64,000 nucleotides of DNA, from positions 256,001 through 320,000 of the forward strand of contig CAWGMQ010000007.1 of the NCBI GenBank assembly GCA_963823665.1, in the 5' to 3' direction. The DNA is from an uncultured Planctomycetota bacterium. Its GTDB lineage: Bacteria > Planctomycetota > Planctomycetia > Isosphaerales > Isosphaeraceae. Under the pieces are notes generated by a model. That model was not told the DNA's origin and ran no database searches. It saw only the letters and a list, made by a program, of their open reading frames with translations. This document shows, one piece after another, positions 9,601 through 63,940 of this stretch (its first letter is position 1; each line of letters starts with the position of its first letter). Position numbers and translations under genes: made by a program.

Positions 9601-10232
9601 CCGATGGTTACGCACGAGCCTTGAAGCACGGCCCGACGGACGACGGCAACTTCTGGTTCGAGTACGCCGCGGTGCTCCTGCTGTCCGGCGATCGCCCGGG
9701 CTACGAGAAGGCGTGTGCCCACCTTGTGGATCGGTGCGGCAAGGACAAGGGCCTGCGGCCGTACCACGTGGCCCGCGCCTGTACCCTGGCCCCCCACGCC
9801 ATCGCGGACATGTCGCTGCCGGGCCGTTTAGCCGAGAAGGAACTCCAGGCCTCCCGAGAATTCTGGTCATTGACCGAACAAGGGGCCCTGGCGTTCAGGG
9901 CCGGCCGGCTCCAGCAGGCGGTGCCGTTGTTCGAGCAGAGTCTCCAGGCCGAGCAAAAGTCGGGCCGTGCGGTGCTCAACTGGCTGTGGCTGGCCTTGAG
10001 CAATCAGCGCCTCGGGAAGGCCGAGGAGGCGCGACGCTGGCTGGAGAAGGCCCAGGTGTGGCTCGACCAGTACCATGACGGGATGCCGGCCCGGGCCGAA
10101 GAGGAGTTAGGGTTGCACTACCACAACTGGCTGGAAGCGCACGTCCTGCGCCGCGAGGCGGAAGCACTGATTCCGTCCACAGGTCCCCGAAGTGGTCCGG
10201 AAGACCGGGAAGGCGGGGTGGCACGGAAATGA
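6642..10232 (+). CDS. Ser/Thr protein kinase with TM helix and TPR repeats
   Basis: LGRGGMGLV, VAVK, HRDLKPAN, DFG, GTPSYMAPE; repeated GRLDEAIxxFxxAIRLxP units. Confidence 0.92.
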   Translation: MAVDPQVLELLDELCDSGCTPEEVCAACPELLPEVRRRWLQMCAVKADLDALLPAPGSDAGPGGDTSVPWHTGDELPQIPGYELEALLGRGGMGLVYKARHLRLNRFVAVKMLITGAYAGPDERARFQREAEAAASLHHANIVQVHDVGDHQGWPYFTMELLEGGSLSRALAGTPQPARQAAALVATLAEAVQVAHRGGIVHRDLKPANILLTAEGTPKVADFGLARHFEGEPAFTLSGTRIGTPSYMAPEQVIGKAGTIGPAVDIYALGVLLYEMLTGRPPFRGESPAETERQVLNHEPVSPARLNPKVPRDLETICLKCLSKEPQRRYGSAAALAADLTRFGEGRPIAARPVSHAERFWRWGRRNPTAAALLATALASMGLLSAGGVWLAQQRARHDAEMRKDVVTAVAQADSLRTGFHFREARKLLEQARQRLEPAEPADLRRQVDQARSDLELVEELDKARLQTNAPVKGRFEIKWAEPLYAEAFANAGLGEPGDDSAAVAARVRDSAVCADIVASLDDWASTSLDPARRAWLLAVARGTDPNPLRDRLRQPELWRDGPALTKLIQETRLVEKVRADELSPHLAVTLSRILLQNHQEAEPLLTAAHARHRQDFWLNFQLGWTLCGSRRSDEALGYFRAAMALRPDAAPAYRGVGASLFNMGRVDEAIGYFQQALDMAPDYAAAHHDIGSALGEKRRLDEAIDHFREAIRLRPERSAETHTLLATALREKGRLDEAIDQYQQAIRLDPSRSARAHTGLCAAMYVKGRLDDAISHAQEAIRLDPKGSARAHITLGASLNANGRPAEAIGHFQVAVRLEPNLAPAHFSLAIVLRDKGRLDEAIGHFERGLGLDPNLAVARRPLFTCRYAAACAAVRAAGGDDARQPRVAEAERAGLRRRALDWLLANIELTTELLKRGKAVDWSLAAWQTEPTLAGVRDWDALAKLPDAERDQWQRLWADVAAQVAADPLGQGRAQAARREWARAADGYARALKHGPTDDGNFWFEYAAVLLLSGDRPGYEKACAHLVDRCGKDKGLRPYHVARACTLAPHAIADMSLPGRLAEKELQASREFWSLTEQGALAFRAGRLQQAVPLFEQSLQAEQKSGRAVLNWLWLALSNQRLGKAEEARRWLEKAQVWLDQYHDGMPARAEEELGLHYHNWLEAHVLRREAEALIPSTGPRSGPEDREGGVARK

Positions 10233-10480
10233 ACGCCTTCTGAGGCAAGCCGATGTCTTCGACTCGCGAGGCACTGACCGCCGCCGCCGGCTATGGTGGG
10301 ACGGCGGAACCAACTCCTTTTTCAAATGCAAGAGTGACATCCTTCCGGTATTTGAAATGTGCAAAAGGTGAACCGGGGAAGAAATGGCGATGCTTGATTC
10401 GACGAAAGGGGCCGGATAACATCCAGGCTCGTTGTGGTTGTGCGCCTTGATCTTCGTGCCGAGCCAAGGAGACTGGTCCA

Positions 10481-11434
10481 ATGAACGCAGCTTCGGTGAA
10501 TCGCCGGCAGTTTCTGGAAGGCAGTCTTGCGTGCGGCGCATTGATCGGCGCGGGAGTAGCCAGGGGCGCGGTTGTGCAGGATTCTGGCAAACCGGGAGCG
10601 GGCAAGATTGGCGATTTCAAGATTTCCCTGGCGGAATGGTCGTTGCACAAGGCGCTTTTCAGCCACAAGATCGACAACCTCGACTTTCCCAAGATCGCCA
10701 AGGAAGAGTACGGGATCGAAGGGGTCGAGTTCGTGAACCAGTTCTTCAAGGACAAGGCGGATGATTCCGCGTACCTGAAGGACCTCAAGAAGCGCGCGGA
10801 TGACAACGGCGTGACGTGCGTCTTGATCATGATCGACGGCGAGGGAGATTTGAGCGCCGTCGAGCAGGAAGCGCGGATGAAAGCCGTTGAAAATCACAAG
10901 AAGTGGGTCGACGCGGCGGCGGCGCTGGGGTGCCATGCGATCCGGGTGAACACGGGTGGGCATTACAGTCCGACGGAAGTCGGGCCGGTGGCCGAGGCCT
11001 GCGGCTTGTTGACGGACCATGGCGCGAAGAGCCAGATCAAGATCATCTGCGAGAACCATGGGGGGCCTTCGAGCAACCCGGATGCGATGGTTGCCTTGAT
11101 GAAAGCCGTCAACCGGTCAGATTTCGGGACGCTGCCGGATTTCGGCAACTTTCCGCAGGAGGAGGGGAAGTACAAGATTGACATCTACGACGCGATCGCT
11201 CGGATGATGCCGTATGCCAAGGGCGTTTCGGCCAAGAGCTACGACTTCGACAGCTCGGGCAAGGAGACCAAGCTGGACTTCGCGCGGATCATGAAGATCG
11301 TGAGCGATGCGAACTATCACGGCTTCGTGGGAATCGAGTATGAAGGGAGCCGGCTGTCGGAGCCCGAGGGCATCCGCGCCACCAAGAAACTGCTCGAATC
11401 GCTGCGCGGCAGCAATTATGAGCCGAGCGCATGA
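10481..11434 (+). CDS. Sugar phosphate isomerase/epimerase (xylose-isomerase-like TIM barrel) with Tat-like signal
   Basis: NRRQFL leader; CENHGG, TLPDFGNF, GIEYEG. Confidence 0.88.
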   Translation: MNAASVNRRQFLEGSLACGALIGAGVARGAVVQDSGKPGAGKIGDFKISLAEWSLHKALFSHKIDNLDFPKIAKEEYGIEGVEFVNQFFKDKADDSAYLKDLKKRADDNGVTCVLIMIDGEGDLSAVEQEARMKAVENHKKWVDAAAALGCHAIRVNTGGHYSPTEVGPVAEACGLLTDHGAKSQIKIICENHGGPSSNPDAMVALMKAVNRSDFGTLPDFGNFPQEEGKYKIDIYDAIARMMPYAKGVSAKSYDFDSSGKETKLDFARIMKIVSDANYHGFVGIEYEGSRLSEPEGIRATKKLLESLRGSNYEPSA

Positions 11435-11460
11435 GCGCTCCCGGCGTGCATTGACGCTCG

Positions 11461-11838
11461 CTACTCCGTCATCGATCCGATAATGGCCAGGCCAACCGCA
11501 CCGGCGATCACCAGCGCGCCGATCACGACCCCGAGCGCGGGGAAAGTCTTCGACCGATCGCGCTGAAAGAGCCCGGCGATTCCCAGACCGACGCTCACCA
11601 CGGCGAGAAATATGCCACCGATGAACCCCAGAATCAGAATCGCTTCCTGGGGCGATACCTCATCCATGCCTGCCGGATCCGCCGATTCGTCGAGGAGGGC
11701 GGCGAACGCGACGACGGCAACCTCGACCAAGCCGGCAACGCACGCGATCACGAACGAGCTGATTCCCAGGACCGAGTGCTCGGGCTCGTCGTCGTCATCG
11801 TCGTCGTCGTCTTGAAATCTCGACTCGTAAGGATTCAT
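11461..11838 (-). CDS. Small membrane protein with acidic N-terminus
   Basis: Three hydrophobic helices, HSVLGISSF motif. Confidence 0.75.
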   Translation of the reverse strand: MNPYESRFQDDDDDDDDEPEHSVLGISSFVIACVAGLVEVAVVAFAALLDESADPAGMDEVSPQEAILILGFIGGIFLAVVSVGLGIAGLFQRDRSKTFPALGVVIGALVIAGAVGLAIIGSMTE

Positions 11839-11868
11839 CGGCTGGTCCGCAGTTTTGTGGGTCGTTGA

Positions 11869-11946
11869 TCAGACCCGTCGGGTCCAATGGTCCTGATGGC
11901 GTTTCAAGTGGGAGACCGAGATTACGCGAGCGGTTTTTCCGATCCA
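11869..11946 (-). pseudogene. C-terminal remnant of a ParE/RelE toxin
   Basis: Frame reads WIGKTARVISVSHLKRHQDHWTRRV*, resembling the ParE C-terminus (VIAVAHxKRxPxYW), directly after the antitoxin. Confidence 0.55.
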
Positions 11947-12185
11947 CTCGAGCGCCCTTCCAGCCGTCGGCGCACTCGATCTCGAACCACAGACCATGGT
12001 GCCGTCTGGACGGCGCCGGAGTCTATTTCTGCGGAGCGGCGATTGATTTCAACCAGCAATTCCGGGTCGAACGGAAGTTCGCTCTCGTAGCTTCGTGAAG
12101 CGATTAGCGCGTCGACGAGATCCAGGCGTTCTTCTTCTGGTAACGTCAATGCGAGTTGGAGTACTTGTTGGGCCGCGGGGCTCAT
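11922..12185 (-). CDS. Addiction module antitoxin component (TIGR02574-like)
   Basis: MSPAAQQVLQLALTLPEEERLDLVDALIAS...EINRRSAEIDSGAVQTAPW. Confidence 0.8.
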   Translation of the reverse strand: MSPAAQQVLQLALTLPEEERLDLVDALIASRSYESELPFDPELLVEINRRSAEIDSGAVQTAPWSVVRDRVRRRLEGRSSGSEKPLA

Positions 12186-12279
12186 TGATAGTTCGTCCAG
12201 GGAGTCAGGGACCGATGCCAGAACAAACGCCATTTTACTCCCTGCCGCCGGCGGAGTCGAGCGGCCGTCGCGCTGTCGT

Positions 12280-12588
12280 TCAAGCAGGATTGGGGTTCTT
12301 CTGCGGCAAGAGGACGCGGCGAAGTGCCATGCCGGCGTATGCTCCTGCAAAGGCGAAAGGAAGCGCCAGGAGCGATCCGTAATTGCGGTGAAGTGCGATT
12401 CCCTGCGCAGGAATCCACAACCCGACGGCGAGGGCCCAGAGCCACGGCCGGCCGGCGGCGCCCAGGATGCCCGTGACAAGCAAAATGGCCGCCACGGTGA
12501 CGCCGGTGTCATCCCAGTTCGGCCGTGAATCGACGTAGGCGATGCCGGCACCAATGGTCAGCGCGGCCACGAATAGCACTTTGTTCAT
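12280..12588 (-). CDS. Small membrane protein
   Basis: Four hydrophobic segments, YVDSRPNWDDTGV. Confidence 0.75.
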   Translation of the reverse strand: MNKVLFVAALTIGAGIAYVDSRPNWDDTGVTVAAILLVTGILGAAGRPWLWALAVGLWIPAQGIALHRNYGSLLALPFAFAGAYAGMALRRVLLPQKNPNPA

Positions 12589-12679
12589 CCGGAAATACCC
12601 TCGCTCGAGCTGTCATTTAACTTTGCAATGCAAAGTATCTTACCGGCGAGAGCGAGTGAGTCAAGGTGTTGATTAATCG

Positions 12680-14242
12680 TCAGCGCTTCAGCTCGCGCTT
12701 CAGGTTTTCGAGGGACTTGAGCGTCTCGTCGAGTTTGCGCTCCATGACTTCGAGGCGATGCTGCGCGCCGGGATCCGCGATGGGCTTCTGAACGCTCGTG
12801 CCGCGGGCGCGCGGCTCGGTGAAGTAAACCTCGACGCGGCTCCTGTTCTTCAACTCCTCGAAACTGGTGAACGATCCGACGAGCTTCAGTTTTTCCATCA
12901 TCAGGTTCGGGTGCAAAATGTCGTGGATGTACGCTTCCTTCGACACGCCTCGTTGCTTTTCTAGAAACTGATACAACGCGTCGAGGTTCATCCCACATTG
13001 CGACGCGACGCGCCCGGCCTCGGCTTCGACCTCCGCGGCGGTGACTGTGATCCCGCGGCGCTGGCATTCGCGTTCGAGGATCGCTTTGTAGATGAGCACT
13101 TCGAGCTCCTTCGCGCCGTATTTCGCCAAACACTGCTCGACCAGCGCGTTGCGCGCGATGGGTGTATCGTTCACCCGCGCGACGATCGCGGTTGGCTGGT
13201 CTGCGGCTGGCTGCACCGGCATCGGCCGCGGGGCAACCTGGGGCGTATGGCATGCCATACAGTTCTCCCTCGGACTGACTGGACACACGATCTGGTGGTC
13301 TCGCGCCGGCATTGGGGCACCACTCGCTTGCTTCACTTCCCCCGTTTGATTGCGCTGATCGGCCGACATTCCCTTGCCGACGACCGCTAGACCGACGGCC
13401 ACCGCGAGCCCACCAACCATCAGTTTCATCACGCTCATGGAAATACTCCGCGAAACATCCACCATCAGGGCCATCGCGCTTGCCGAGACCGCCTCGGCAG
13501 CCGTCGCCCGACCTTTTGCTTTCACGACCTGAAAGGCAGCTTTGAGTGTGGCTTCCACGAGAGCGGGTGGCGTGGCCGCGAGGCCTCGGCCGGCGGCCAG
13601 CGCCGCGGTGAGTGCGCCAATGGTCGGGGCGAGGCCACGGCGCGACAGCCGGGTTCGAAGCCGAGCGCGGCCGCGTGCCAGGCGGCTCTCGAGCGTGCCG
13701 ACCGGGCAGCCGATCCGGCCGGCCGCTTGCTCGTGCGTGAGACCTTCGACGAGACAGAGCACGATTGCGGCACGGAACGGCGCGGGCAGCCGGGCGAGCT
13801 CTTCGTGGAGGGCCCGCCTCAGCTCGTCATCCTGGCATTCGAGCGGGACCGACGGACACATTCGTTCGGCTGCCCGCTGCTCATGTCGCCGTCGCCGGGC
13901 CGCCGCCGATCGGGCGCAGGAGGCCGTCCGATAGGCGACCTGATGGAGCCAGGCGCCGAGTGAGTCGCGCACCCAGAGCGATCTCGCCCGGCGCACAAGG
14001 ACAAGGAAAGTCGCCTGGAACGCGTCGTCAACATCCTGGCGGTCGCGCAGGATGGAGCAACACGTGCGGAGGACCATCGGGCCGTGCCGCTCGACCAGAA
14101 TGGCGAACGCGGGCTCGGCTGCCTCGCCGCACCGCGACGTGAAACGGTGCAGGAGCTGCCCGTCAGTCAAGTTCCCCATTGTTCCCGAGTCGAATAAAGC
14201 CTGGACGTTGCGGATGACCGCGCCTTGCCGAACTCTTGACAT
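12680..14242 (-). CDS. ECF sigma-70 factor with C-terminal extension (TM, CxxCH, SurA-N-like domain)
   Basis: LVERHGPMV, DAFQATFLVL, region 4 GCPVGTLESRLARGR; TM ~aa275-290; CMACH; IVARVNDTPI...RGITVTAAEVEAE. Confidence 0.88.
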   Translation of the reverse strand: MSRVRQGAVIRNVQALFDSGTMGNLTDGQLLHRFTSRCGEAAEPAFAILVERHGPMVLRTCCSILRDRQDVDDAFQATFLVLVRRARSLWVRDSLGAWLHQVAYRTASCARSAAARRRRHEQRAAERMCPSVPLECQDDELRRALHEELARLPAPFRAAIVLCLVEGLTHEQAAGRIGCPVGTLESRLARGRARLRTRLSRRGLAPTIGALTAALAAGRGLAATPPALVEATLKAAFQVVKAKGRATAAEAVSASAMALMVDVSRSISMSVMKLMVGGLAVAVGLAVVGKGMSADQRNQTGEVKQASGAPMPARDHQIVCPVSPRENCMACHTPQVAPRPMPVQPAADQPTAIVARVNDTPIARNALVEQCLAKYGAKELEVLIYKAILERECQRRGITVTAAEVEAEAGRVASQCGMNLDALYQFLEKQRGVSKEAYIHDILHPNLMMEKLKLVGSFTSFEELKNRSRVEVYFTEPRARGTSVQKPIADPGAQHRLEVMERKLDETLKSLENLKRELKR

Positions 14243-50130: not shown

Positions 50131-53100
50131 ATGCCGATTTACACGCGTCAGTATGCCGAGGTCTTTGAGAACGCACGGGCGGCCGAGGATGCGGTCCGGC
50201 GGTATCTCACGCTCGTGGAGACTGACCTGCGGGAGACGTCGCTCTTGGCGATGGCTTCCTGGCAGGACGCGGGGATTCCTCGTGATCTCTGGAAGCCGGC
50301 GCTGCCGAATCTGTTCCGGGTGGCGGCGGGGCTTCAGGAGCCGTCGTTCGGGCGGTGGAATGGCATGCTGCACGCGCTGCGCGAGGCGCTGGCCTGCGTG
50401 GGGACGACAAGCGAGGCGGCACGGTCGCCCAGTGCGCTCATCGCCATTCTCGACTGGCTGCGGACCCCGGCCGAACTGGAGGCGATCGAATCGCTTCGGG
50501 CGCTGGCGCCGCTGCTGCACTACAGCCTGCCGGCGCGGGCGAGCCGGTGGGATGCGATCAGCCTTTCAGTCTGCCTGCGCAATCGGATCGCCCACGACGC
50601 GGCCGGGGACGAGGCGTGGTGGGCCGCGATCGTCCCCATGGTACGCTCTCTCTCCGCTTCCTTTGCGGCTGTGCCGCCATGCCTCGAACGCGAGGGGCTG
50701 GTTTATCCCCAGCCGTGGTTCCTCGAGAGGCAGGGGATCTGGCATGCCTTCAGCGGCATCCGCGGGGAATACGCTCTCTTTTCCTCCATCGGCGGACAAT
50801 CGCTCCGGGTTTCGCTCAACGAGACGGAGCTGATCGATGCGTTCCAGCAGTTGCTCGGCCAGGCCGAGCTTCAGCAGTCTTCGTTTCGAGAGCTGATGAA
50901 GCGACTCGCCCCGGAGGAGCACAAGGGGGTGCTCGTCGGCGACTTTTTGCTCGGTCCGCCGGCCGCGGAAGGGGGGTTTGCGGTCGTGCACCGCGGCTAC
51001 CAGCTCAGCATCGAGCGAAAGGTTGCTCTCAAGGTCTTCCCGGATGCGCTCACGCAGTCGAAGCGGGCGCTCTTGCGGAGGGAAGCCGAACGGCTGGGTG
51101 CGTTCAATTCGCCGGAGATCGTCCGGCTGATCGGCTTCTACGAGGAGATTCCCTGGACCGCACCGCGCGAGATCAGCCTGACGGGTGAAGCATGGTTCGA
51201 GGCGCTCAAGAAGGGATCCGGATTCAAAACGTTCCTGGCTATGGAGTGGGTCGGCGGCGAGGATCTTGCGGCGGTCATCGACCGTCCGGCCGCGAATCGG
51301 CCCCCGATCGACGTTCTGATCGGCTGGTTTGAGACGAGCGCCCTTGCGCTGGCGAAGGTGCATGCCGCGGGGCTGACCCATATGGATGTGACTCCGAACA
51401 ACATCCGGGTCACGCCCGAGGGGCAGATCAAGCTGATGGATTTCGGGATCGCGCGCAGCGAGACCGAGCGCCAGGACTTGATGACCCGCACGAGACTGGG
51501 CGTCGGCACGCCGGCCTACATGGCTGCGGAGCAATTTGACGACCAGGGCAACCGTCAATCGGATGTTTATTCGCTTTGTGCCACGTTTTATGAGTCGTTC
51601 ACCGGCCGCCGGCTGTATGACCACGATCGGATCGACCTTCAGGAAGTGAATCGCCGGAAGCGGGAGGGAATCGCGCCTGAGTCACCTCGGAGCATTCGGT
51701 CCGAGATTCCGTGGGAGGTCGAGACGCTTCTTCTCGGGGGCTTGCATGTCGAGCCGGGGCTCCGGCCCACGAGCCGGCAGGTCGCCGACGATTTGCGGCG
51801 AATCATCGAGAATCGGCCGATCAAGTACCGGCGGCCGCCGCTGCATCGCCGGGTGCGGCTGTGGTATCGCCGGCACCAGGCGGCGGTTCGGGTGGCGGCG
51901 CCAGCCTTGGCTGGGCTGTTGTTCGTGGCGATCGTGCTTGGGGTTTTCTGGCGGGGAGCTGAGAGGCGATCGGGCGAGCTGGGGAAAGAGGTTGGCACGC
52001 TTGCAAAGAAGGCGGAATCCGAGTCAAAACGGGCGGAAACGGAGGCCGGGAGGGCGAAAGACCAGGAACGGCTCAAGTTCTTGCAGCAATACATCGCCGA
52101 TATGAGGCTGTTGCCGGGGTGGTGGAAGGACGCCCGCGTGGACCTCATTCGCGACCGATTACGGCCGTATGCCACCGCGGCCACCTACGATCCTCGCGGG
52201 TTTGAGTGGTATTACTGGGACCGCCTGGTGAGCGCGGCAAGCGCGACTTGGAAGCCCGAGGATCGGACCCGTTCGCTCGACTGGTCTGCTGACGGCAAGA
52301 CGCTCTATGCGGCGGACGTGAAAGGGCGGGTACTCGCCTGGAACCGCGCAACCGCGGAGAGCCGGCAGGTTCGCGGCGCGGGCTCGGGTGCGATCGCGGT
52401 GACCTCCGCTCCGAGCGGTTCGAAGCTTGCGATCACGACTGCTGCGATCAGGCGCACGGCGGGCGAGCCGCCGGAGTCGTCGTCGATCGAGATCATTGAC
52501 ACGGAGACGGGCGGCGAGCTGCGCAAGATCACGACACGGGGGTTTGGCTTCCGAGCCGCGGCGTTCGGCCCGAACGGCCGGCGAATCGTGACGAGCGATG
52601 TCGCGACCAATCTTTGGGTGTGGGATGCCGTGAGCGGGAAGCCCGAGGTCGACCTGGTGCACAACCCGAACGCACGCCGGGACTTGACGAACCCGATGGA
52701 GGTGCTTGGCGCCCACGACCCGCATCAAGGGCCGGTGCACGCGCTGGCGTTCAGTCCGGTCGATGCGACCGTGGTTGCCAGCGGCGGCGACGATGGGGCG
52801 ATCGGGCTCTGGAACACTCGAACCGGGCGGCACCTGGGATGGCTCGGCGAGCGACGCGGCAGTGTGGCCTCAGTCTCCTTCAGCCGTGACGGCACGAAGC
52901 TGGTGAGCCACTCGCTGCCAAGACCGGCCGGTCAGTTCCATCGCGTGGCGATCCCCGCGGAAATCGACGTCTGGCGAGTGCAATCGCATGAGCGGATTCG
53001 GCGGATTGAACTGGCCGATGAGTACGAGGGTATCACGTCCGACGGGTTCTCGATTCGCAAGGGGAACTTTCGCGCCGACTTCGTGGGAGACGATCGTTTG

Positions 53101-56100
53101 ATCGCCGCGGCGATCGGGAACGTGGTTCGGGTCTGGGATCTCGCAACGGGGTTCGTCGTCAAAGAGCTTAAAGGGCATACCGCGACGATCAACGCCCTGC
53201 GCGCCTCGCCTGACGGCGTGCTCGTGGCCAGCGCGGACGCGGGCGGCGAGGTGCGGATCTGGAACCTGAACGAATCCGAGGAGATGGAGACAATCCGGCA
53301 ATTCGAGGGGCCGGCCCGCTCCGTCGCGTCATCTTCCGCTGCCGGCGAACGCCTGGTGGCGTTGTATGAGTCACCGGGCAGCACGTCATCGAACGGCACG
53401 GTCGATCCGAGCGAAAGCCGCAATCTATATATCTTCAACCGGTCGGGTGGGGCTGAAGCGCCGCCCGAGAGGGGAAGCGGTTACTACCTCGGCACGGCCC
53501 AATCGCCGGCAGGGGGCCGCATTGCCACGTTTGACATGCTCAAGGAAGAGATCATCGTGTGGGAAACTGCGAATGGAAAAGTGATCCGGGTTTTTCCCGT
53601 GAAGCGAAAGGAAGAGGAGCCGAAGGGCAGGAACCGCGGGGGCTCACGTGAGAAAACGGACGTGCGTAGTTTGGCGTTTCGCGATGAAAAAGATTTGTAC
53701 GCGGTGACGGGCGAGGGGCTCTGGCGATTGCGGGTAGACTCGGGCGCTCTTGAGACGGTCGCGGGCCTGGCGGTCGGCTCGTCTCCGAAAGAGGCGACAC
53801 CCGACTTGCTTGTCCTCGAAGACGCGGTGATGGCGCTTTGCTTTTCACCAGACGGACGGATGGCCGCAGCGGGCACCGGTGGGAGGCAGGTGATCGTTTA
53901 CGATGCGGGCACATGGAAGGAGCTCGCGCGGTTGCGCGGCCATTCGCGTGGGATCACCGGGATCGCGTTCTCGAGTGATGGCCGGCGGCTCGCCAGCAGC
54001 AGCGGACGATATTTCCGGCTGGGGGCGGCGGAAGCGAACGACCGGCCGGGCGAGGTGATCGTGTGGGACACGACGACCTGGGAGGACTGCCTGCGACTGA
54101 CTCATCCCGACGCGTCTGAGTTTGCGGGGGTCGCATTCGGCGATCGCGATCGCACGCTCTTCGCCGCGGCGAATCCCGTAACAGTTAGCCCGGGCAAGCT
54201 TCCCCGCGGCGAGATTGTGCGCTGGGTGAGCACGGCCGGCGTCGCGCGGATCGCGGCAGCGGCCAATGCCGCGCGTTCGACGGCCGATTCGGCCGCTCGA
54301 GTGCGTCTCCGCGAGAGCAAGCCTGTTGGATTGCCGCCGGCTTCAACCAAGCTGTCGCGTTCGGGCGAGACAAAGCCGCTCGAAGGGGCCGTATTCCGCT
54401 CACCCGGCATGTTCATGGGCATCGCCGGCGTCACCGGCTTCACGTCGGTGGCGGTTCATCCAACCGGCGAGCTGATCGCCGCGGCAACGATCATCAGCCG
54501 GCTGATACTCTGGGATGCTCGAACTCAGGAGGTTGTGGCGGAGGCCGTTCTTCCGCCGGTTTCCTGGCCGGGATACGAGATCACGTTTAGCCCGGACGGC
54601 TCGCACTTGATCTGCACCATCGGTGACGACGCGTTCGTCCGGTCGATTCCAGGCCTGGGCGAGGCAAATTTCGAGGACGCCGCGCTGAACTTGAGACCGG
54701 AGATCGCGGCGACGATACGCCGGATCAAGATCGGCGGCGAGACGGTTCCTCTCCGACCCGCCTACTCGATGGAGGGTGCTTCACCGTTCAGCCGGGACGG
54801 CCAGCTCCAGGCGCTGGCCACGCGGGGAGACTCGCCCGCCCTCGAGGTCATTTCGGTGCCGAAGAAGTCGAAGTTGTTTTCGGTGCCGCTTGCAGGCCCG
54901 CCGATCCAAGTTGGCGTCTCGGCTAATGGCAAGGTCGCTTATGCCGTCACCCGGCCCAGCGTCGCCAAGGGAGGCGCCTGTGCCGGCCTCGGCGCTCGAG
55001 CGATGGGAGGTTCCGGGCGGGAAACCGCTCGGGGTTACCAAGGGCATGATGAACCTGGTCGCGCTGTCTCCGGATCTGGAACGATCGCTTGAGATGGCGA
55101 ACGGGATCGAGCTGTATGCGCGAACTATCCACGGGGCAGCGTGCGGCGGCACCGTTTGCCACCGAGGCGGGTTTTAGGGGGGTCGCGTTTTTCCCGGACG
55201 GCGAGCACGTGGCGACGTTCGGAGGTCAGAACTGGACGAAGGTATGGAAGATATCCACTTTGCTAAAGATCCCTGAGAACTTGCTGTTCCGCGCGGTGGG
55301 AACGCTGCTCGTCGCGCCTGACGAGAAGACGATTGCCTACGTCGATGCGTACGGCTGGCCCGCGCTGTACGACGTGGCGCGGCACCGAGCGAGCAAGCTG
55401 GCTCTCGACACCGCGCCGCGGGTTGGGGCAGCGAAGGCCGGCTCACGGCCGCGAACGCGCGGAAGCGACAATGCTGCACGTATGCATGGGCTGGTGCCAT
55501 GGCACTTCACGCCCGACGGACGAACGCTCGTGGCTGCTGCGTTCGCCGGAAGCGCACGCGCGAATCCGACGGCGTTCGACGTGAATCGCGGGGTCGAGGT
55601 TCCGATCGAAACGCTGCCCGAGGACGTCCGCCCGCCCGGTGCTCCCGCGGGCCAGAGCTTCCGGGGGTTCTTGCTTGCGATGCACGCAGCGTCCGACTCG
55701 AAGATGTTCTACTTGCTCCAGAGCATGCAGCAAGGCGCACCGCGAGGGGTTCGGAGCGAGCCGCCGTATCTGCTGTGGGATGGGGCCCAATCGCATACCG
55801 TACCGGCCCTGGGCGAGACGGCAGGCGGATTGAAGTTGCCGTGCTTCAGTGAGCGAGGCACTTTCGTGGCGGGTTTGCTGCCGGGAATCCGCCGGCGCAC
55901 CAAAGGCGCGGTCGAGCAGTCGGGCCCGGCGGTTGTCGTCCTTTCGACGAGCGACGGCAAACTCGTTTCGCGAATTCCATGCGGAAGCGATGATGTGATC
56001 TCGCTTCGGTTCACAGGCGCCGAGGACGCGCTGTTATTGCACCAGCGAGTTACGGGCAAGGCGACGGCGCTGGGGGAATTCTCACTGGCCGCGTTTGATC

Positions 56101-56990
56101 CCAGGAGTGGACGCGAGCTAAATCGACGCGCCGGCCTCCGGACCACTTTCCTGGCAGTGTCGGACGACGGAGGGCGTCTGGCTTCGCCGGTTGAGGGTGC
56201 GATCTTGATTGAATCGCCCGCAACGAAAACCGAGCTTGGGCGGATCGCGTTTGACGACTGGCCGATGCAACCCGTTGCCTTCCTGGCGGCCGGCACGAAG
56301 CTGATCACTACGGGAGCAAACGGGGCGATCCGGCTCTGGGACAGCTCGGGCCGTCCGATCGCGGTTCCGCGGCTCCAGGAGGTCGTTCCAATCGTCGAGC
56401 CGGTTGCACCCGCGACCAAGGCGAACGTGCCCGTGCCAAGGGCTCCGGCCGCACCGCGGCGACCAGCAACGGCGAAAGCTGGAAAGCCGAGCCAAGCGCG
56501 ACTGGCCGACGAGCTGAAAGAGATGGCCGTGCGTCTCAATGGTTCGCCGCAGGGCGCCTACCGTGGGCGGTTTCCCGCGCTCGCGGCCGGGTGCGAGATG
56601 CTGGCCTCGAAACTGGCGGCCGGTGAGACTCCCACGGCGGATATCGCCAAGGAGATGGAGCGGTTTATCAAAGATGCGAAGGACCTGAAAGAAGAAGGAG
56701 GGAAGCACTCGCCCTTCAAGGACTTCAACACGACGTACACGGATCGCAGCGGGCGCAGCGGACTGCCCGGATACAAGGCCAAGTTCTTTCACGAGGCGCG
56801 TGATCTCTTCGGCAAGACTATGTCCCGATCAAGAGAGACGCCCATCCTGTACGGGCAGCGGCTGTTCGCGGAGATGATCATGACGCTCGAACGGCAGATC
56901 GAGGACCTCACGGGCAAGCTGCCGGATTCGTCGCTGCTGGAGGAATGGCGAAAGGCGGGGCCAGAGAGCGGTGACAAACCGGGAGGGTGA
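50131..56990 (+). CDS. Giant protein: HEPN-motif N-domain, Ser/Thr kinase, TM helix, WD40 propellers, helical tail; two frameshifts at ~54960-55120
   Basis: LRNRIAH; AEGGFAVV, VALK, HMDVTPNN, DFG, GTPAYMAAE; GH...WD repeats; ORF 54776..55177 bridges 50131..55092 and 55089..56990. Confidence 0.82.
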
Positions 56991-57073: not shown

Positions 57074-59005
57074 ATGGCGAAATCGCGTGGCACGGGTGAT
57101 TGGCTGTTACTCGAGGAGAAGCTGGAGCGAGGCGACCCTTCGTTCGTGGACGATCTGCGATCGTTTCACGACGCCGAGGTCCTGGCCGGGTTTGCCGCTC
57201 GCTGGTTTGGGGACAAGCGGCCGGCATCGCGGCGCGTGATGCTGGAATACCTCGATCGTCCGCTGAACGCCTTTCGGCATGAGGCGCTGGTGAAGCGGCT
57301 CTTCAAGGCGGCCGAGGCTGCCGGCGATGATGAGGTCATGGCGCGGTTCCTGGTGCTTTTCGACCGCTCGGTGCGCCGGGAGGAGTGGCGGAGGCGGCAC
57401 GTGGAATGGGCGAAGGTCAAGACGGAAGCGGCCGCGCAGGAACTCATGGCTCACTGGCGTGCCCTGGGCTTTGACAGCGTTCAATCCTTCAACTGGCAGC
57501 GCGGGACGATCCAGATTCGCGGTGACTGGCACGAGGTGCGTCTTGGGATGCCTACACGCACCGCGATGCCGCGCGACGAGATGAAGCATCGAAATCCTCG
57601 CACGGGCGAGCTGATTTCGGACATCAACACGCGGCTCCAGAAGTGGTTCGGAAATCATCGCGTGGGAGAGCCGGTTCCACGCCGGGTGCAAAAGCTGATC
57701 GAGCGGCTGCGTCTGTTCTCGGTGGCCACGCGGCAGTACTTGAGGCGCAGGGCCTGGCGCTACTTCCGGCGAATGGGCAAGACGAACCCGCAGCGGTACG
57801 TCGCGGCCATGTCGCGGGCGCTGGAGCGATACACCGATGGCGACGTTGCCGACGGACTCGCGCTGATTGATAACTGGGGTCTCATGCATGCGCTTTTTCA
57901 TCGGAGCGAGATTCTGACGGCAAAGCCGGGAGGGTGGGTTCCGACCGAAGGGCGCTCGCTTGCAGAGCTTTCACCCGCGCCGATCTACGAACGGCTGTGG
58001 GAGCAGGCGCCGCGGGCTCTTGTCGAGTTGCTGTTTGCCGCGCGGTGCCGGCCAGTGAGGCAGTGGGCCGTCCAGATGATTCGCCGGCATGATGGCGCCC
58101 GCGCGGCCGTCAAGCTCGACGAGCTGATCGGTCTGCTCGCTCATGAAGAGGCGGACGTCGTGGCGCTGGCGGTCGAGCTTTTCCGGGAGATGAAGGGCAT
58201 CGACACGCTTGCTGTCGATCAGTGGATAGAGCTGGTCGAGAAGGCTAACCCCTCGGTGCTTGAGTGGATCGTCGAGCTGCTGGAGAGGTTCTTCGATTCC
58301 GAGCGGGTGACGCTTGCGCAGGTGGTCAGGCTTGCGCGATGCCGCAGAGTGCCCGTTGCGCGGGTGGGTTTGAAGTGGCTCTCGAACAAGGTGCCGCAGC
58401 ATGCGGCGGCCGACACCTTGCTGCTGGGTCTCACGGAGGCGGAGTGTGAGCCGCTGCGCGGGCAGATCGTGCGATTGGTCAGGGAACGACTGGCGGCAAC
58501 CACGCGGTTCGATCCAAGCTGGGTGCTCGAGTTTCTGGATAGCCGGCATGCCGACGTGCGCGCCGAAGGGATCGAGTGGTTCCGGTCGGAATCGCGTGCT
58601 CGCGACGACGTGACGATCTGGCCACGGCTGATGGAAACTCCCTACGACGATGTGCGCCTGTTCTTGATCTCGGCGCTGGAATCTCGCGTAGGCGGGCGCG
58701 ACGTCGACCGCGCGGTATCTCACGGGTTGGATCCGGAGGCGTTGCGGCTGCTCTGGGCGTCGGTGCTCCTGAACATCCAACGGGGTAGCCGGGCCAAGCC
58801 GACGGTCGTGCGGCAGCTCGTGCGGGCGATGAAACGCAGGCCGGCGGATGCGGAATTGGTCTTGCCGATTCTGGCTGTGGCGCTGCGATCGTCCCGCGGG
58901 CCTGAGCGCCGGGTGGGGCTGGCGGCGGTGGCGGAACTGGTCGAGGGGGATGTGCAGACGACGAAGGTACTCGCCGCGATTTTTCCGGAGTTGAAGTTAC
59001 TGTGA
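57074..59005 (+). CDS. ARM/HEAT-repeat-like protein, retron-associated
   Basis: 643-aa all-helical Leu/Arg-rich ORF, FSVATRQYLRRRAWRYFR, LDSRHADVR; first gene of the RT locus. Confidence 0.8.
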   Translation: MAKSRGTGDWLLLEEKLERGDPSFVDDLRSFHDAEVLAGFAARWFGDKRPASRRVMLEYLDRPLNAFRHEALVKRLFKAAEAAGDDEVMARFLVLFDRSVRREEWRRRHVEWAKVKTEAAAQELMAHWRALGFDSVQSFNWQRGTIQIRGDWHEVRLGMPTRTAMPRDEMKHRNPRTGELISDINTRLQKWFGNHRVGEPVPRRVQKLIERLRLFSVATRQYLRRRAWRYFRRMGKTNPQRYVAAMSRALERYTDGDVADGLALIDNWGLMHALFHRSEILTAKPGGWVPTEGRSLAELSPAPIYERLWEQAPRALVELLFAARCRPVRQWAVQMIRRHDGARAAVKLDELIGLLAHEEADVVALAVELFREMKGIDTLAVDQWIELVEKANPSVLEWIVELLERFFDSERVTLAQVVRLARCRRVPVARVGLKWLSNKVPQHAAADTLLLGLTEAECEPLRGQIVRLVRERLAATTRFDPSWVLEFLDSRHADVRAEGIEWFRSESRARDDVTIWPRLMETPYDDVRLFLISALESRVGGRDVDRAVSHGLDPEALRLLWASVLLNIQRGSRAKPTVVRQLVRAMKRRPADAELVLPILAVALRSSRGPERRVGLAAVAELVEGDVQTTKVLAAIFPELKLL

Positions 59006-59029
59006 GTTCGTGTGATGATTTGAACCTCA

Positions 59030-59267
59030 ATGATCTCGCGGGCGGCCGGGTCGGGAACCGAGAACCTGAATGCTGCGGCGTTCCGCCGCGGCCGACATTG
59101 GCCCAGCCTTTGCGTCCCCGAGGCCGTTGTTCTTTCGCTGCCGGTGCACCGTCGCCGTGGCACTGAGCCGACGGACGGTCTGCCACAGCGACGGTGCACC
59201 GGCAGCTCGGTGAACGACCTCGGTCCGTGCCTCGAAGTCGGTCCGGCCCGGCCGCCCGCGGGATCAT
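59030..59267 (+). ncRNA. Putative retron msr-msd RNA
   Basis: 25-nt inverted arms 59030-59054 / 59243-59267 (two G-U pairs), small hairpin 59072-59092, long hairpin 59137-59206 with a perfect 19-bp base; in the only large gap of a retron RT operon. Confidence 0.8.
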
Positions 59268-59298
59268 CGTCCTTTCTGCTGCGGAAGAACATTTCAGC

Positions 59299-60994
59299 AT
59301 GAATCTGACGCTTCAATATCGGAGGCGAAGTGCGATCACGGAGGTGCCGGAGGGTCTGGATGTCACGCTGGCGCCGAACCTGCGGCGCGACCGCGTGAGC
59401 TTCGAAGGGACACTCCGGCATCCGGTGCGGTTTCGGGAAGCGATGGGGGCGCTGCACGACGTGGTGGTGAGCGACTTGCGATACCAGCCGCGCGACAAGA
59501 CGGCTTACGAGGCATACAAAGCCGAGCAGCGGAATCGCGAGGCAGGAATTCGCCGTCAGGTGGAGTCGCAGGAAAGAGCGGCGATTCTCAAGCAAGCGTT
59601 GCCCGAGTTGCCTGAGGGTTATGTCGCGGACCTCGAACGGCGCTACCGAAAGCTGCGCAAGAGCTACTGGGGGGCGCGGCAGAAGTACTCGAATTACCTG
59701 AGCCGGCACGATCCGGAACTCTGGCGGCTGCTCTTTCCGTGCGACCCGGTGATCACGGTGGCGCCGGATTGCCTCTTTTTCGAGTGTTTCAGCGCGGACG
59801 AAAGCAGCTACGGCTGCTTGACCGTGGAGCGCGCGGCGTTCGAGCGCGAGCGCGACGTCGCGCTCGGGACGACGAATGTCGATTATTCGTGGGCCTTATA
59901 TGAGCACTTTCAGAAGCTGCGGAGCTATCGCGAGACGCGGTTTGCGATTGATCCTTCTGGGTTCGAGGTCGCGGTTGACCAGGCCGGCGATTATCGCGAG
60001 GAGAAGATTGACTTGCCGGGGGGTTGGCTGCGCGGGTTCATGCAGCTTCAGGCGGCCATGAGCTTGCCGATGCGCAGGGTGGGGATTTCGCGTGAAGGGC
60101 TTTATTCGATCCTGGCGTTTCTCAGGCGGCACCGGGCGGCGAAGAGCCCGCGGGCGCTGCGGTTTGAGCTGGAGCGCGGGCGGCCGCCGGCGATCGTGCT
60201 GGAGCCGTGGGAAGAGCGGATCACGCTGCACGGAACTGCTTATGGCGGCCCGCGCGACGAGACGATTCGCGTCTGGGGGCGCGACCGGCTGCGCCCTGGG
60301 ACGCCTGCTGCCGCTACTGGACGAAGCGGAGGTTTATCTGCTGGGTACCGGTCTGCCGAGCTTCTGGTCGATTCGGATGGGAGAGATGCGGCTGCTTCTG
60401 GGGCTTTCGGGCTGGACGGCCAACGACTGGACGGGCACCGCTGCGCTTGATCAGCTCGGGCCGCCGGCCGATCCGAGCGATGCGCTGCTGGGCGACATCG
60501 CGGCGACGTTCGAGAAGTCGCCAGCCTTGACGTTCAGCCAGATTCGTGAGCGAACCGGGGCTGCGCCGGCGTTTGTCGCGGCGGGGTTGTGCCGGCTGGC
60601 CTCGCTGGGGCAGGTCATTCACGATTTGCACGCGGGCCTGTATCGATGGCGGCAGGTCATGCCGGTGGCACTTTCTCTGGATGAGCTTGGGCCCGAGAGC
60701 CCGGAGACGGTGGCGGGTCGCGAACTGTATTACCGGCGGACCGTGCGGGTTGACCGCGATGTAAAGCGGGGCGACGGCCTGCGCATTCTTGAGGGCGAAT
60801 CGGGAGGGCGGGTGGTCTCGCTGTTGCTTGATGCGGATTGGCGAATGGTGCGCGGGCGCTGCACGTGCTCGCACCATTTCACAGGTGGGATGCGACGTGG
60901 GCCGTGCCGGCATTTGCAGGCGCTTCGCCTGGCCACGACTGGGGCGAAACAAGCGTCGAGCGTCGAGGCCTGGTTCCAATCGTTTTTCCAGTAA
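59299..60994 (+). CDS. SWIM zinc-finger protein, retron-associated; frameshift near 60295
   Basis: DPVITV...FFECFSADESSYG, GTTNVDYS, GWLRGFMQLQ; C-terminal CTC-x12-CRH SWIM motif. Confidence 0.82.
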
Positions 60995-61005
60995 CAGGGC
61001 AGGGC

Positions 61006-62594
61006 ATGGGCTGGTTCGCGCGGGTGTTGCAATGGTTATTGGGGGGCCGCGATCGCGGGGCCAGCCGCGGTGCTGGCGCGTCGCCTGCGGTCGAGGCGGA
61101 CCCGTACTTCGCCGGGTCGCCCGCGCCGGTCATCAAGAAGTCGAAGAACTTCGAGCTTGATGCGGGTGCGTTCTTGCCGATCGCGCGTGAAGAGATTATC
61201 GGAACGGCGCGCGGGCGGAATCTGCTGGCGAATCCGTGGTTTGGAAGGCGTGATCAGATTCCGCCCGTTAGCGATCGGCGTACGGTGCTCATTGACCGCG
61301 CGATGGTGACTCAGGGGCTGATCACTCCGGAAGAGCTGGCCGAGATTCACAGCGCCGGCGAGGAGATGGAGCGGGTCAGGCCGAGCATCGCTGGTACGGA
61401 GCATCAGGCAGCGCTCGCGGGCTCTGCGGCGGTCGAGGCTGAGAATGAGGCCCGCTTGCGGCTCAAGGCTTTGAAGAAGGAAGAGGCTGCGCGGCGGCGA
61501 GAGGAGCGTCAAGCGGCGATTGCGCATCGGCGAGCGACCGACATCGTTTTTCTGGGCGCGGGGTTTCGGCGCAATTGCACGACCGACAGAGCGATCTCGA
61601 TCGTCTGGCCGCGGAGGGGCTGCCCTCGCTGAGCACGCCTGGGGAGCTGGCGGCGGCGCTCGGGCTTACGATTCCGCGCTTGCGCTGGCTGGCTTTCCAC
61701 AGCGAGGCGGCGACGGTTTCTCACTACATCCGGTTCACGATACCGAAGCGCAGCGGCGGCACGCGCACGCTGGCGACGCCGCACCGCACGATGGCGCGAA
61801 TGCAGCGCTGGATCTTGACCGAGATCGTGTCGAAGCTGCGGGTGGAATCGCATGCTCATGGTTTTGTGACCGGGCGCAGCATCCTGACGAATGCTCGCGA
61901 GCACGCGAACCGGGCGATTGTGGTGAATCTGGATTTGAAGGATTTCTTTCCGAGCATCGGGTTTCCGCGGGTGAGAAGTGTTTTCAAGAGCGCCGGATAT
62001 TCGCCGGCCGTGGCGACGATTCTGGCGCTCCTTTGCACGGAGTGCCCGCGACGGGCGATTGAGTACGACGGCGTGCGGTATTTCGCGGCGACCGGGCAGC
62101 GCGGGTTACCGCAAGGGGCGTGCACGAGCCCGGGGCTTTCAAACCTGGTGGCGAGGCGGCTGGACCGGCGTCTGGGCGGGCTCGCGGGCAAGCTGGGTAT
62201 CAGCTATTCGCGGTATGCAGATGATTTGACTTTTTCCGGCAATGGCGAACTCGAGGGGCGCGTCGGGTACTTGATGGCACGAGTGCGGCATATTGCGGAC
62301 GATGAAGGCTTCGCCGTGAATGAGGCTAAGAGCCGGGTGTTGCGGCGCAATACGGCGCAGATGGTGACGGGCCTGGTGGTGAACAGCCGGCCTGGGGTTG
62401 CCCGGGCGGAGGTGCGGCGGCTGCGGGCGATTTTGCATCGGGCGCGGACGGAAGGATTGGAGCGCCAGAATCGGGAGGGGCGGCGGGATTTTGTTGCCTG
62501 GCTGCGCGGGAAGATTGCGTTTGTGGCGATGGCGCGGCCGGAGGTGGGGGCGAAGCTGCTGGGTGACCTACAGAGTGTGCTGGGGAGGAGCTGA
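61006..62594 (+). CDS. Retron-type reverse transcriptase (Mx162-like, long N-terminal extension); frameshift near 61557
   Basis: IPKRSGG, AHGF, NAREH (region X NAxxH), LDLKDFFPSI, LPQGACTSP, YADD, VTGLVVN (region Y VTG). Confidence 0.93.
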
Positions 62595-63637: not shown

Positions 63638-63940
63638 TTAGCGGCGTGGTGCCGCTGACTTTGAGCCGCGGCGCGGCGCCCGCGCCAGAAACGCCGACGG
63701 AGCGATGGCGAAGTGCTCGGCGAGCTTGAGGACCTGCCCCTTGGTGAGGGAGCGTGCGCCGGAGAGGACTGCCGAGATGGTGGACTGCGCGATCCCGACC
63801 GATTTTGCCAAGTCCGTCTGGCTGAGACCGCCCGCTCGCATCAGCTCGCGAAGTACGTCGGACTCGGAGACATCCGCGATCGGGACGTGCGCCTCGTCGT
63901 AGCCGGCGATCAGGTCGGTCAAGACGCCGACGTAGTGCCG
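63638..63940 (-). pseudogene. HigA-like HTH antitoxin lacking its N-terminus
   Basis: YVGVLTDLIAGYDE...LSQTDLAKSVGIAQSTISAVLSGARSLT; upstream frame hits TAG inside the 47-bp repeat. Confidence 0.7.

Follow-up and report, generated by a model that had tools for sequence, protein, structure and literature searches.

A type XIII retron locus in a planctomycete with a SWIM protein predicted to have a PCNA-like clamp fold

What does a retron of the oldest known type do for its host? The question is raised by a locus in a stretch of 64,000 nucleotides (hereafter the window) from an uncultured planctomycete of the Isosphaeraceae (contig CAWGMQ010000007.1, positions 256,001 to 320,000). On its plus strand a gene for a HEAT/ARM-repeat protein is followed by a 293-nt gap (59006-59298) that holds a structured noncoding RNA (ncRNA), by a gene for a protein with a SWIM zinc finger, and by a reverse transcriptase (RT) gene. 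This arrangement is that of type XIII, which includes the first retrons ever found and for which our literature search returned no function or mechanism. We suggest that the answer begins at the SWIM protein, whose first ~370 residues model as a two-domain fold of the PCNA/sliding-clamp kind, which would be unusual in a bacterial accessory system. The analysis puts this fold in place of the label “transposase-like DEDE”, and adds an RNA hairpin whose stem is conserved in length and not in sequence, and an RT acting in trans; with these three features the function of the oldest known retron type becomes open to direct tests.

The structure was modelled for an intact orthologue (P0001, 565 aa); the window’s protein is read in two pieces, which are 71% and 67% identical to it. 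With an alignment of 134 sequences AlphaFold2 (AF2) gave a predicted local distance difference test (pLDDT) value of 87.9 and a predicted template modelling (pTM) score of 0.84. In a VIA-align comparison with 48,161 chains archaeal and eukaryotic PCNA come out on top (Z 15.7, root-mean-square deviation (rmsd) 2.8 Å, 214 aligned residues of 245, model residues 35-373), and the best 38 rows are all PCNA, 9-1-1, beta clamps, T4 gp45 and herpesvirus processivity factors. The row after the clamps, at Z 7.7, is ZSWIM8, which matches the SWIM part. Foldseek also retrieves PCNA, at E 1.5e-6, together with viral PCNAs. Hence, on an intact orthologue ~70% identical to the window’s protein, the two domains of a DNA sliding clamp are predicted at residues 35-373, with a helical hairpin inserted at ~60-145 into the first of them. 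A winged helix (~390-453) would follow, and then a beta-sheet with the SWIM finger (~480-550), whose CxCx12CxH motif is encoded at ~60860-60913.

The likeness to PCNA, 9-1-1, beta clamps and UL42-type herpesvirus factors lies in this two-domain fold and in conserved basic residues that would occupy the helical face. Ten of them are found across the 134 sequences (R46, R207, R244, R278, R284, R323, R327, R329, R449 and R451); R449 and R451 are within the winged helix, and judging from PCNA topology several of the ten probably sit on DNA-facing helices. Unlike these clamps, to which it is only 6-15% identical, the SWIM protein has a helical insertion of ~85 residues, a helix in place of the interdomain loop, an N-terminal beta extension, and a winged helix and a SWIM finger fused to the clamp. 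At the locus no clamp loader gene was noted, and the host has its own intact dnaN. Several beta-clamp matches begin at model residue 8-10 and at clamp residue ~50; as a lead only, the N-terminal strands may take the place of a neighbouring domain and cap the ring interface. A homodimer prediction for the clamp domain (two copies of orthologue residues 25-378) scored 0.00 and speaks neither for nor against a ring.

Searches by sequence were less informative. Against the PDB the SWIM alignment found weak winged-helix matches only (E >= 0.01), neither the HEAT nor the SWIM protein reached a Pfam or NCBIfam cut-off, and in the ESM Atlas the N-terminal half of the SWIM protein falls into unnamed clusters that are labelled “SWIM zinc finger family” and have no Pfam. 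We found no relative of the protein in viral contigs and no publication on a clamp fold in retron partners.

Mestre et al. defined this protein family by a Dx7Dx4E..D..E motif and suggested a transposase ancestry (PMC7736814). The residues of the motif (D148, D156, E161, D194 and E233) fall within clamp domain 1. Since the PCNA alignment (Z 15.7) covers them, the model argues against an RNase H-like fold derived from DDE transposases of the IS256/Mutator kind, and no RNase H-like or other nuclease chain is among the fold matches listed for the SWIM protein. A preliminary description of this DNA, made from its letters alone, had rightly noted the SWIM motif and the lack of a WGR domain and overlooked the PCNA-like clamp, the main structural feature. 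Neither piece has a Pfam WGR match, and the tail after the SWIM motif, put at ~25 aa, counts 26 residues.

Within its catalogued type, the locus itself is unexceptional. Each of the three proteins has a match among PADLOC’s type XIII models, so the type of the system was already known: HEAT-ARM_XIII on the HEAT protein (E 3.8e-190), SWIM_XIII on the two pieces of the SWIM protein (profile positions 1-287 at E 2.6e-119 and 291-506 at E 2.4e-55), and RT_XIII on the RT (E 6.4e-145; 481.7 bits vs 359 for the next model, the best among 68 families matched). The type XIII assignment made in the preliminary description therefore stands. Its order of co-oriented parts was found where it had placed them, and the diagnostic motifs of a retron RT are present as NAREH (~61890; NAxxH of region X), YADD (~62214) and VTG (~62364; region Y). 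The upstream gene is of the HEAT/ARM kind; the linked protein has the DEDE motif, winged helix and CxCx12CxH SWIM finger of cluster 114; the ncRNA has a1/a2 repeats, msr and msd stems and a putatively placed priming G. We regard membership as near certain, and all four parts are present and conserved together. A search for a sigma-70 promoter-like site found none.

According to Mestre et al. 2020 type XIII corresponds to clade 10, with Retron-Mxa1/Mx162, Mxa2/Mx65, Sau1/Sa163 and Nex2/Ne144 (PMC7736814); it is a known, broad group with 26 planctomycete members (PMC13712802). The window’s locus shares with it an RT with a long N-terminal extension, an msr-msd ncRNA, an upstream HEAT/ARM gene and a winged helix-SWIM protein bearing the family motif. 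It differs in that the region held to be “DEDE, transposase-derived” models here as a clamp, and in the place of its ncRNA, which lies between the HEAT and SWIM genes, as in 13 of 55 informative loci, and not before the RT, as in 34. The features are collected in Table 1.

Table 1. Parts of the type XIII retron locus, in window coordinates.
Feature	Position	Strand	Remarks	PADLOC model
HEAT/ARM alpha-solenoid gene	57074..59005	+	643 aa, intact	HEAT-ARM_XIII
Retron ncRNA (msr-msd)	59030..59267	+	bounded by a1/a2 inverted repeats	
Putative branching (priming) G	59062	+	first unpaired base past a1/a2 stem	
msr hairpin	59072..59092	+	9 bp, nearly invariant	
msd hairpin template	59137..59206	+	26-bp stem, sequence free; conserved 18-nt loop at 59163-59180	
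Predicted clamp-winged helix-SWIM gene	59299..60994	+	two frames; ~565 aa in orthologues	SWIM_XIII
Type XIII retron RT gene	61006..62594	+	two frames	RT_XIII

Two of the genes are interrupted in the assembly: compared with intact orthologues, the SWIM gene is short of 2 nt near 60295 and the RT of 1 nt near 61554. Both frameshifts are probably assembly errors, because this assembly also breaks rpoB and ileS, and the retron is most likely intact in the living cell. The genome of the window has 16.46 Mb in 12 contigs, which is very large for a planctomycete. Six genes of replication, transcription and translation were checked in it: three are each split in two frames (rpoB, ileS and a second dnaE), and three are whole (rpoC, dnaE and dnaN). 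Two frameshifts within 5.2 kb of coding sequence might also mean that the window’s copy is a decaying pseudo-locus and the frameshifts real. However, with 3 breaks in the ~17 kb that remain without dnaN, it is unremarkable for 5.2 kb to contain two or more (P = 0.23), no piece contains an in-frame stop, and all motifs and ncRNA stems are intact. Intact orthologues are 67-73% identical over the RT core and to either side of the break in the SWIM gene; over the RT extension, which is variable, the values reach 55-59%. We therefore give decay only a small chance. In the ten closest relatives the SWIM gene has a single frame in seven and is broken elsewhere in three assemblies, two of them with further breaks in the locus. 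Five sequencing runs of soil or rhizosphere DNA had small word shares, and no RNA run was listed; in the four that were aligned, no piece among those listed spans either frameshift. Programmed frameshifting was considered and rejected: the orthologues are single-frame, and in another error-rich assembly (L039) the 1-nt loss is a different one and lies a few bases apart. Upstream of the retron a Ser/Thr kinase-WD40 gene (50131-56990) looks split near 55090, probably by another assembly frameshift.

What would the RT copy? The gap between the HEAT and SWIM genes folds at z = -8.47, which 0 of 200 shuffles equal. The a1/a2 repeats are 25 nt long (59030-59054 and 59243-59267), and their stem is prolonged inward by CCGA at 59058-59061, which pairs with 59238-59241; this extension is seen as conserved pairing of columns 45-48 and 247-250 in the ncRNA alignment. 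Across 15 homologues 33 of the 49 predicted pairs have changed on both sides, that is, with compensation. By the rule given in PMC6868368, that priming uses the first unpaired base after the a1/a2 stem, the G at 59062 is the likely priming G. The multicopy single-stranded DNA (msDNA) is predicted to be ~120-130 nt long and copied leftwards from ~59237, with both ends placed from sequence. No Rfam family reaches its cut-off within the window.

The msd hairpin is ruler-like, with a fixed length, a near-random stem sequence and a conserved loop. We compared 84 ncRNA copies: 93 profile hits, minus hits shorter than 160 nt and three duplicate loci, plus the window. Of these, 70 have a main hairpin of 67-75 nt (26-27 bp and a 17-19-nt loop where fully paired), a uniformity that may be inflated by the use of one profile to collect the copies. 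Of the other 14, six have interrupted stems scored at 55-57, five measure 79-88, and three have no resolved span. Identity between copies in the middle of the stem (56 copies) is 0.35 vs 0.31 expected from composition, and the loop motif occurs in 56 of the 84 copies vs a mean of 1 in shuffled ones.

Some further features of these hairpins were observed. A longer class of 87-88 nt, with ~8-9 bp of extra stem, comprises three copies in L039 and L090. Two or three copies per locus are found in L036, L037, L041, L039, L093, L105, L107, L108, L113 and L119, arranged in tandem or placed in front of the SWIM gene or of the RT. Within one genome the stems are often unrelated, and in these multi-copy loci they usually differ in sequence. 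The thought that the stems are spacer-like and derived from phages was set aside after a weak test, in which 22 nt of the window’s stem had no exact match in viral contigs. Acquisition of stems is also unsupported because those of close relatives diverge gradually, with compensation.

The RT has an N-terminal extension of ~185 aa that is specific to the window’s subtype; its sole match in the ESM Atlas (0.83) is hypothetical. Placing the RT in a phylogeny, a check proposed in the preliminary description, was done in a quick version (midpoint root, no outgroup from outside retrons, L197 and the L006 group II RT left out) that gives support only as SH-aLRT (Shimodaira-Hasegawa approximate likelihood ratio test). 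The best models for the window’s RT are all retron RTs. In the tree it falls in a clade of 39 rows (SH-aLRT 99) grouped largely by host taxon, and its nearest named relatives are from Isosphaeraceae, in keeping with the planctomycete host proposed earlier. Where the RT is unlinked from the locus it is retained: in 7 of 7 genomes searched (G034, G035 and those of five of the eight RT-less GTDB loci) an orthologue with the subtype’s extension lies elsewhere. In G035 (L067) and G356 (L193) the RT is far from the HEAT-ncRNA-SWIM unit, by 22 kb in G035, and must act in trans since no ncRNA was detected beside it. The window’s own genome holds a second, unrelated retron-like RT (L053:8129-9499, at ~519 kb of G000:C7) with no type XIII partners nearby.

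Gene order was surveyed in the best 80 of 582 confirmed GTDB loci, picked by similarity to the window’s SWIM subtype; the hosts are Planctomycetota, Verrucomicrobiota and Myxococcota. Of 63 loci whose flank is long enough, 60 have the HEAT gene directly upstream, and of 66 informative ones, 58 have the RT downstream, in support of a conserved gene neighbourhood. For the ncRNA, 55 loci have both flanks: 34 carry it between SWIM gene and RT, 13 between HEAT gene and SWIM gene, 2 at both sites and 1 doubled before the SWIM gene, and in 5 it was undetected. The spread is patchy: 19 of 36 genomes of the window’s own family (E <= 0.001, all paralogues counted) and 17 of 300 genomes of the phylum. 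In L098 an Mrr-type (type IV) restriction gene is found between the SWIM gene and the RT (8929-9912).

Myxobacterial genomes carry an orthologue of the window’s locus (in Myxococcus, L146) and also a second type XIII locus, with a giant WD40/HEAT gene, a longer SWIM protein of the WGR-bearing class and an RT of another class. In Myxococcus L206 and L211 the RT is of that other class (441 vs 286 bits), the HEAT partner is different, and the window’s ncRNA model gives no match. The second locus, which judging from its ncRNA is probably of the Mx162 type, has stems of 29-34 bp with the same loop motif as the window’s subtype. The window’s RT belongs to a clade with 99% support that stands apart from this subtype, and the window’s SWIM protein lacks the WGR. 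The window’s locus is thus probably a sister subtype of the WGR-bearing, probably Mx162-type locus, and the term “Mx162-like” used in the preliminary description holds for the type and probably not for the subtype. In Archangium four tandem ncRNA copies precede the sister-subtype RT in an array-like arrangement (L207:3009-4018, also L212), with near-identical flanks and 26-nt loops around four different 29-bp stems. Directly upstream of another type XIII locus, L045, are genes for a Macro domain, a WGR-PARP and an ADP-ribosylglycohydrolase (9610-12796); L044 has similar genes, judged from the starts of open reading frames (ORFs) only.

Clamp-SWIM proteins also occur without a retron. In the window’s own genome an RT-less clamp-SWIM gene is followed by a gene for a 1038-aa DUF6493/DUF7824/DUF7825 protein (L052:8174-12843, G000:C3), comparable pairs are found in L054, L055 and L056, other planctomycetes have such pairs too, and the ESM Atlas places relatives mostly in Actinomycetota. 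No RT or ncRNA was found near these pairs. Their SWIM protein is homologous to the window’s family over its full length (hhalign 99.95%, 443 columns) and is likewise paired with a protein of ~1000 aa, presumably also of helical repeats; it differs in lacking the helical insertion, and its partner lies downstream and is of another family. In one reading, the retron core joined a pre-existing module of clamp-SWIM and helical-repeat proteins. Our literature search found nothing relevant on the DUF6493 pair.

The HEAT protein of the window was modelled by AF2 with a pLDDT of 90.8. It matches generic HEAT/ARM solenoids only, over residues 304-643 and with a best Z of 11.4, which is in the range expected for helical repeats. 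Its C-terminal half consists of generic HEAT repeats; in the N-terminal half many Arg, Lys, Trp and Asp residues are conserved, and a beta ribbon is inserted at ~103-158. No enzyme fold was recognised, in a search that barely covered the N-terminal half.

How could these parts work together? We tentatively suggest, at somewhat under even confidence, that the clamp protein holds the msDNA as a rod of DNA within a surveillance complex, and that a disturbance frees the clamp-HEAT pair and arrests replication; binding, release and arrest are all steps that we infer. The RT would copy the ncRNA into a branched msDNA with a duplex rod of ~26 bp. The clamp/winged-helix protein would hold this rod independently of its sequence, with the conserved loop conferring specificity, and the HEAT protein would scaffold clamp protein and msDNA with the RT. 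Such a complex could be a sentinel of DNA structure, the msDNA serving as a decoy duplex or primer-template junction that occupies the clamp-HEAT pair. Phage proteins that cut, bind or modify the msDNA would free the pair, which, being non-enzymatic, would bind replication or repair intermediates or partners and thereby arrest replication. In its support we count the clamp fold, the basic residues, the span of the hairpin, the free stem with its loop motif, the sharing of this motif with the myxobacterial sister subtype (common RT and SWIM protein, different HEAT partner), the linkage of the genes, the co-retention of the RT when unlinked, the patchy spread, and the precedent of other retron types, which are msDNA-gated defence systems (PMC12916289).

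A number of points weigh against the surveillance complex. The shared fold by itself shows no function, and the clamp fold needs no msDNA, because RT-less pairs of clamp-SWIM and DUF6493 HEAT proteins exist. The uniform hairpin length may, as said above, be inflated. Fold searches of both partner proteins found no toxic enzymatic domain, as the preliminary description had anticipated. RTs in the tree cluster by host taxon, and for type XIII a correlation with 16S and possible domestication have been reported by Mestre et al. (PMC7736814). In a scan of the flanks of 30 hand-picked long loci, which covered 251 of 270 ORFs (19 shadow ORFs over core genes excluded) at a PADLOC cut-off of E <= 1e-15, 12 of 251 were hits vs 7 of 138 in 20 arbitrary control regions of four planctomycete genomes (Fisher p = 1.0), so there is no enrichment; a defence-specific subset chosen post hoc gave 7/251 vs 1/138 (p = 0.27). 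Our literature search found no functional study of any type XIII system. The available text of PMC6868368 gives no function for myxobacterial retrons, and those of PMC8632793, bioRxiv 2020.06.21.156273 and PMC12916289 hold nothing further on type XIII. As for the “multi-component defence system” proposed in the preliminary description, a role in phage defence is unproven, given the flanks without PADLOC enrichment and an RT tree that largely follows host taxonomy.

Some of these observations would suit a domesticated system for DNA stress, where the clamp-HEAT pair is a 9-1-1-type sensor of breaks, gaps and stalled forks and the msDNA a ligand or sink that sets its threshold. The RT tree follows taxonomy, the genes tolerate unlinking yet are co-retained, the flanks show no defence-island enrichment, viral contigs hold no relative that we found, 9-1-1 subunits are among the fold matches, and RT-less pairs are widespread; moreover, SWIM proteins of the sister subtype carry a WGR, and one sister locus has the PARP, Macro and ADP-ribosylglycohydrolase genes upstream. 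We nevertheless consider this rather unlikely: only ~6% of the sampled genomes of the phylum have the system, with several paralogous subtypes in a genome, an uncommon pattern for a core function; the host has an intact dnaN, and in L098 an Mrr nuclease gene is inserted inside the locus. The clamp-fold protein might also be a cryptic enzyme and the real effector, with an acidic metal site, for example a structure-specific nuclease inhibited by msDNA, and Mestre et al. indeed file type XIII under putative nucleases (PMC7736814). In the 134 sequences D148 is acidic in 98%, E161 and D166 in 100%, D194 in 95% and E233 in 91%; D148, E161, D166 and D194 would lie, by PCNA topology, on one edge of the inter-domain sheet, and D148, E161, D194 and E233 are retained in the RT-less paralogue. 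D166, however, is absent from this paralogue, and the acidic edge is the peptide-binding face of PCNA, so that its conservation may instead mark a pocket for a partner. The known clamp-fold proteins are, to our knowledge, non-catalytic, and we hold a hidden enzyme to be unlikely.

The idea of the msDNA as a rod within a surveillance complex can be carried further. The msDNA of type XIII, and with it the original one of 1984 from myxobacteria, might be a self-made decoy of a replication junction, assembled from a duplex of fixed length, an RNA-DNA hybrid and a looped end that is free; the PCNA-fold protein would sit on this junction without a clamp loader. Together with the HEAT scaffold it could trap phage proteins that bind or load clamps, or act as a 9-1-1-like checkpoint. 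This extension is speculative, and the chances are well against it; if true, the retron would act by replisome mimicry and not by a toxic enzyme.

Last, we note some neighbouring genes. Single loci have Mrr, restriction-modification, TIR or PARP/Macro/ADP-ribosylglycohydrolase neighbours. In the window, a gene for a HigA-like helix-turn-helix antitoxin that scores below cut-off lies on the minus strand at 63638-63922, and a near-duplicate of it is found ~1.2 kb further on the contig (L058).

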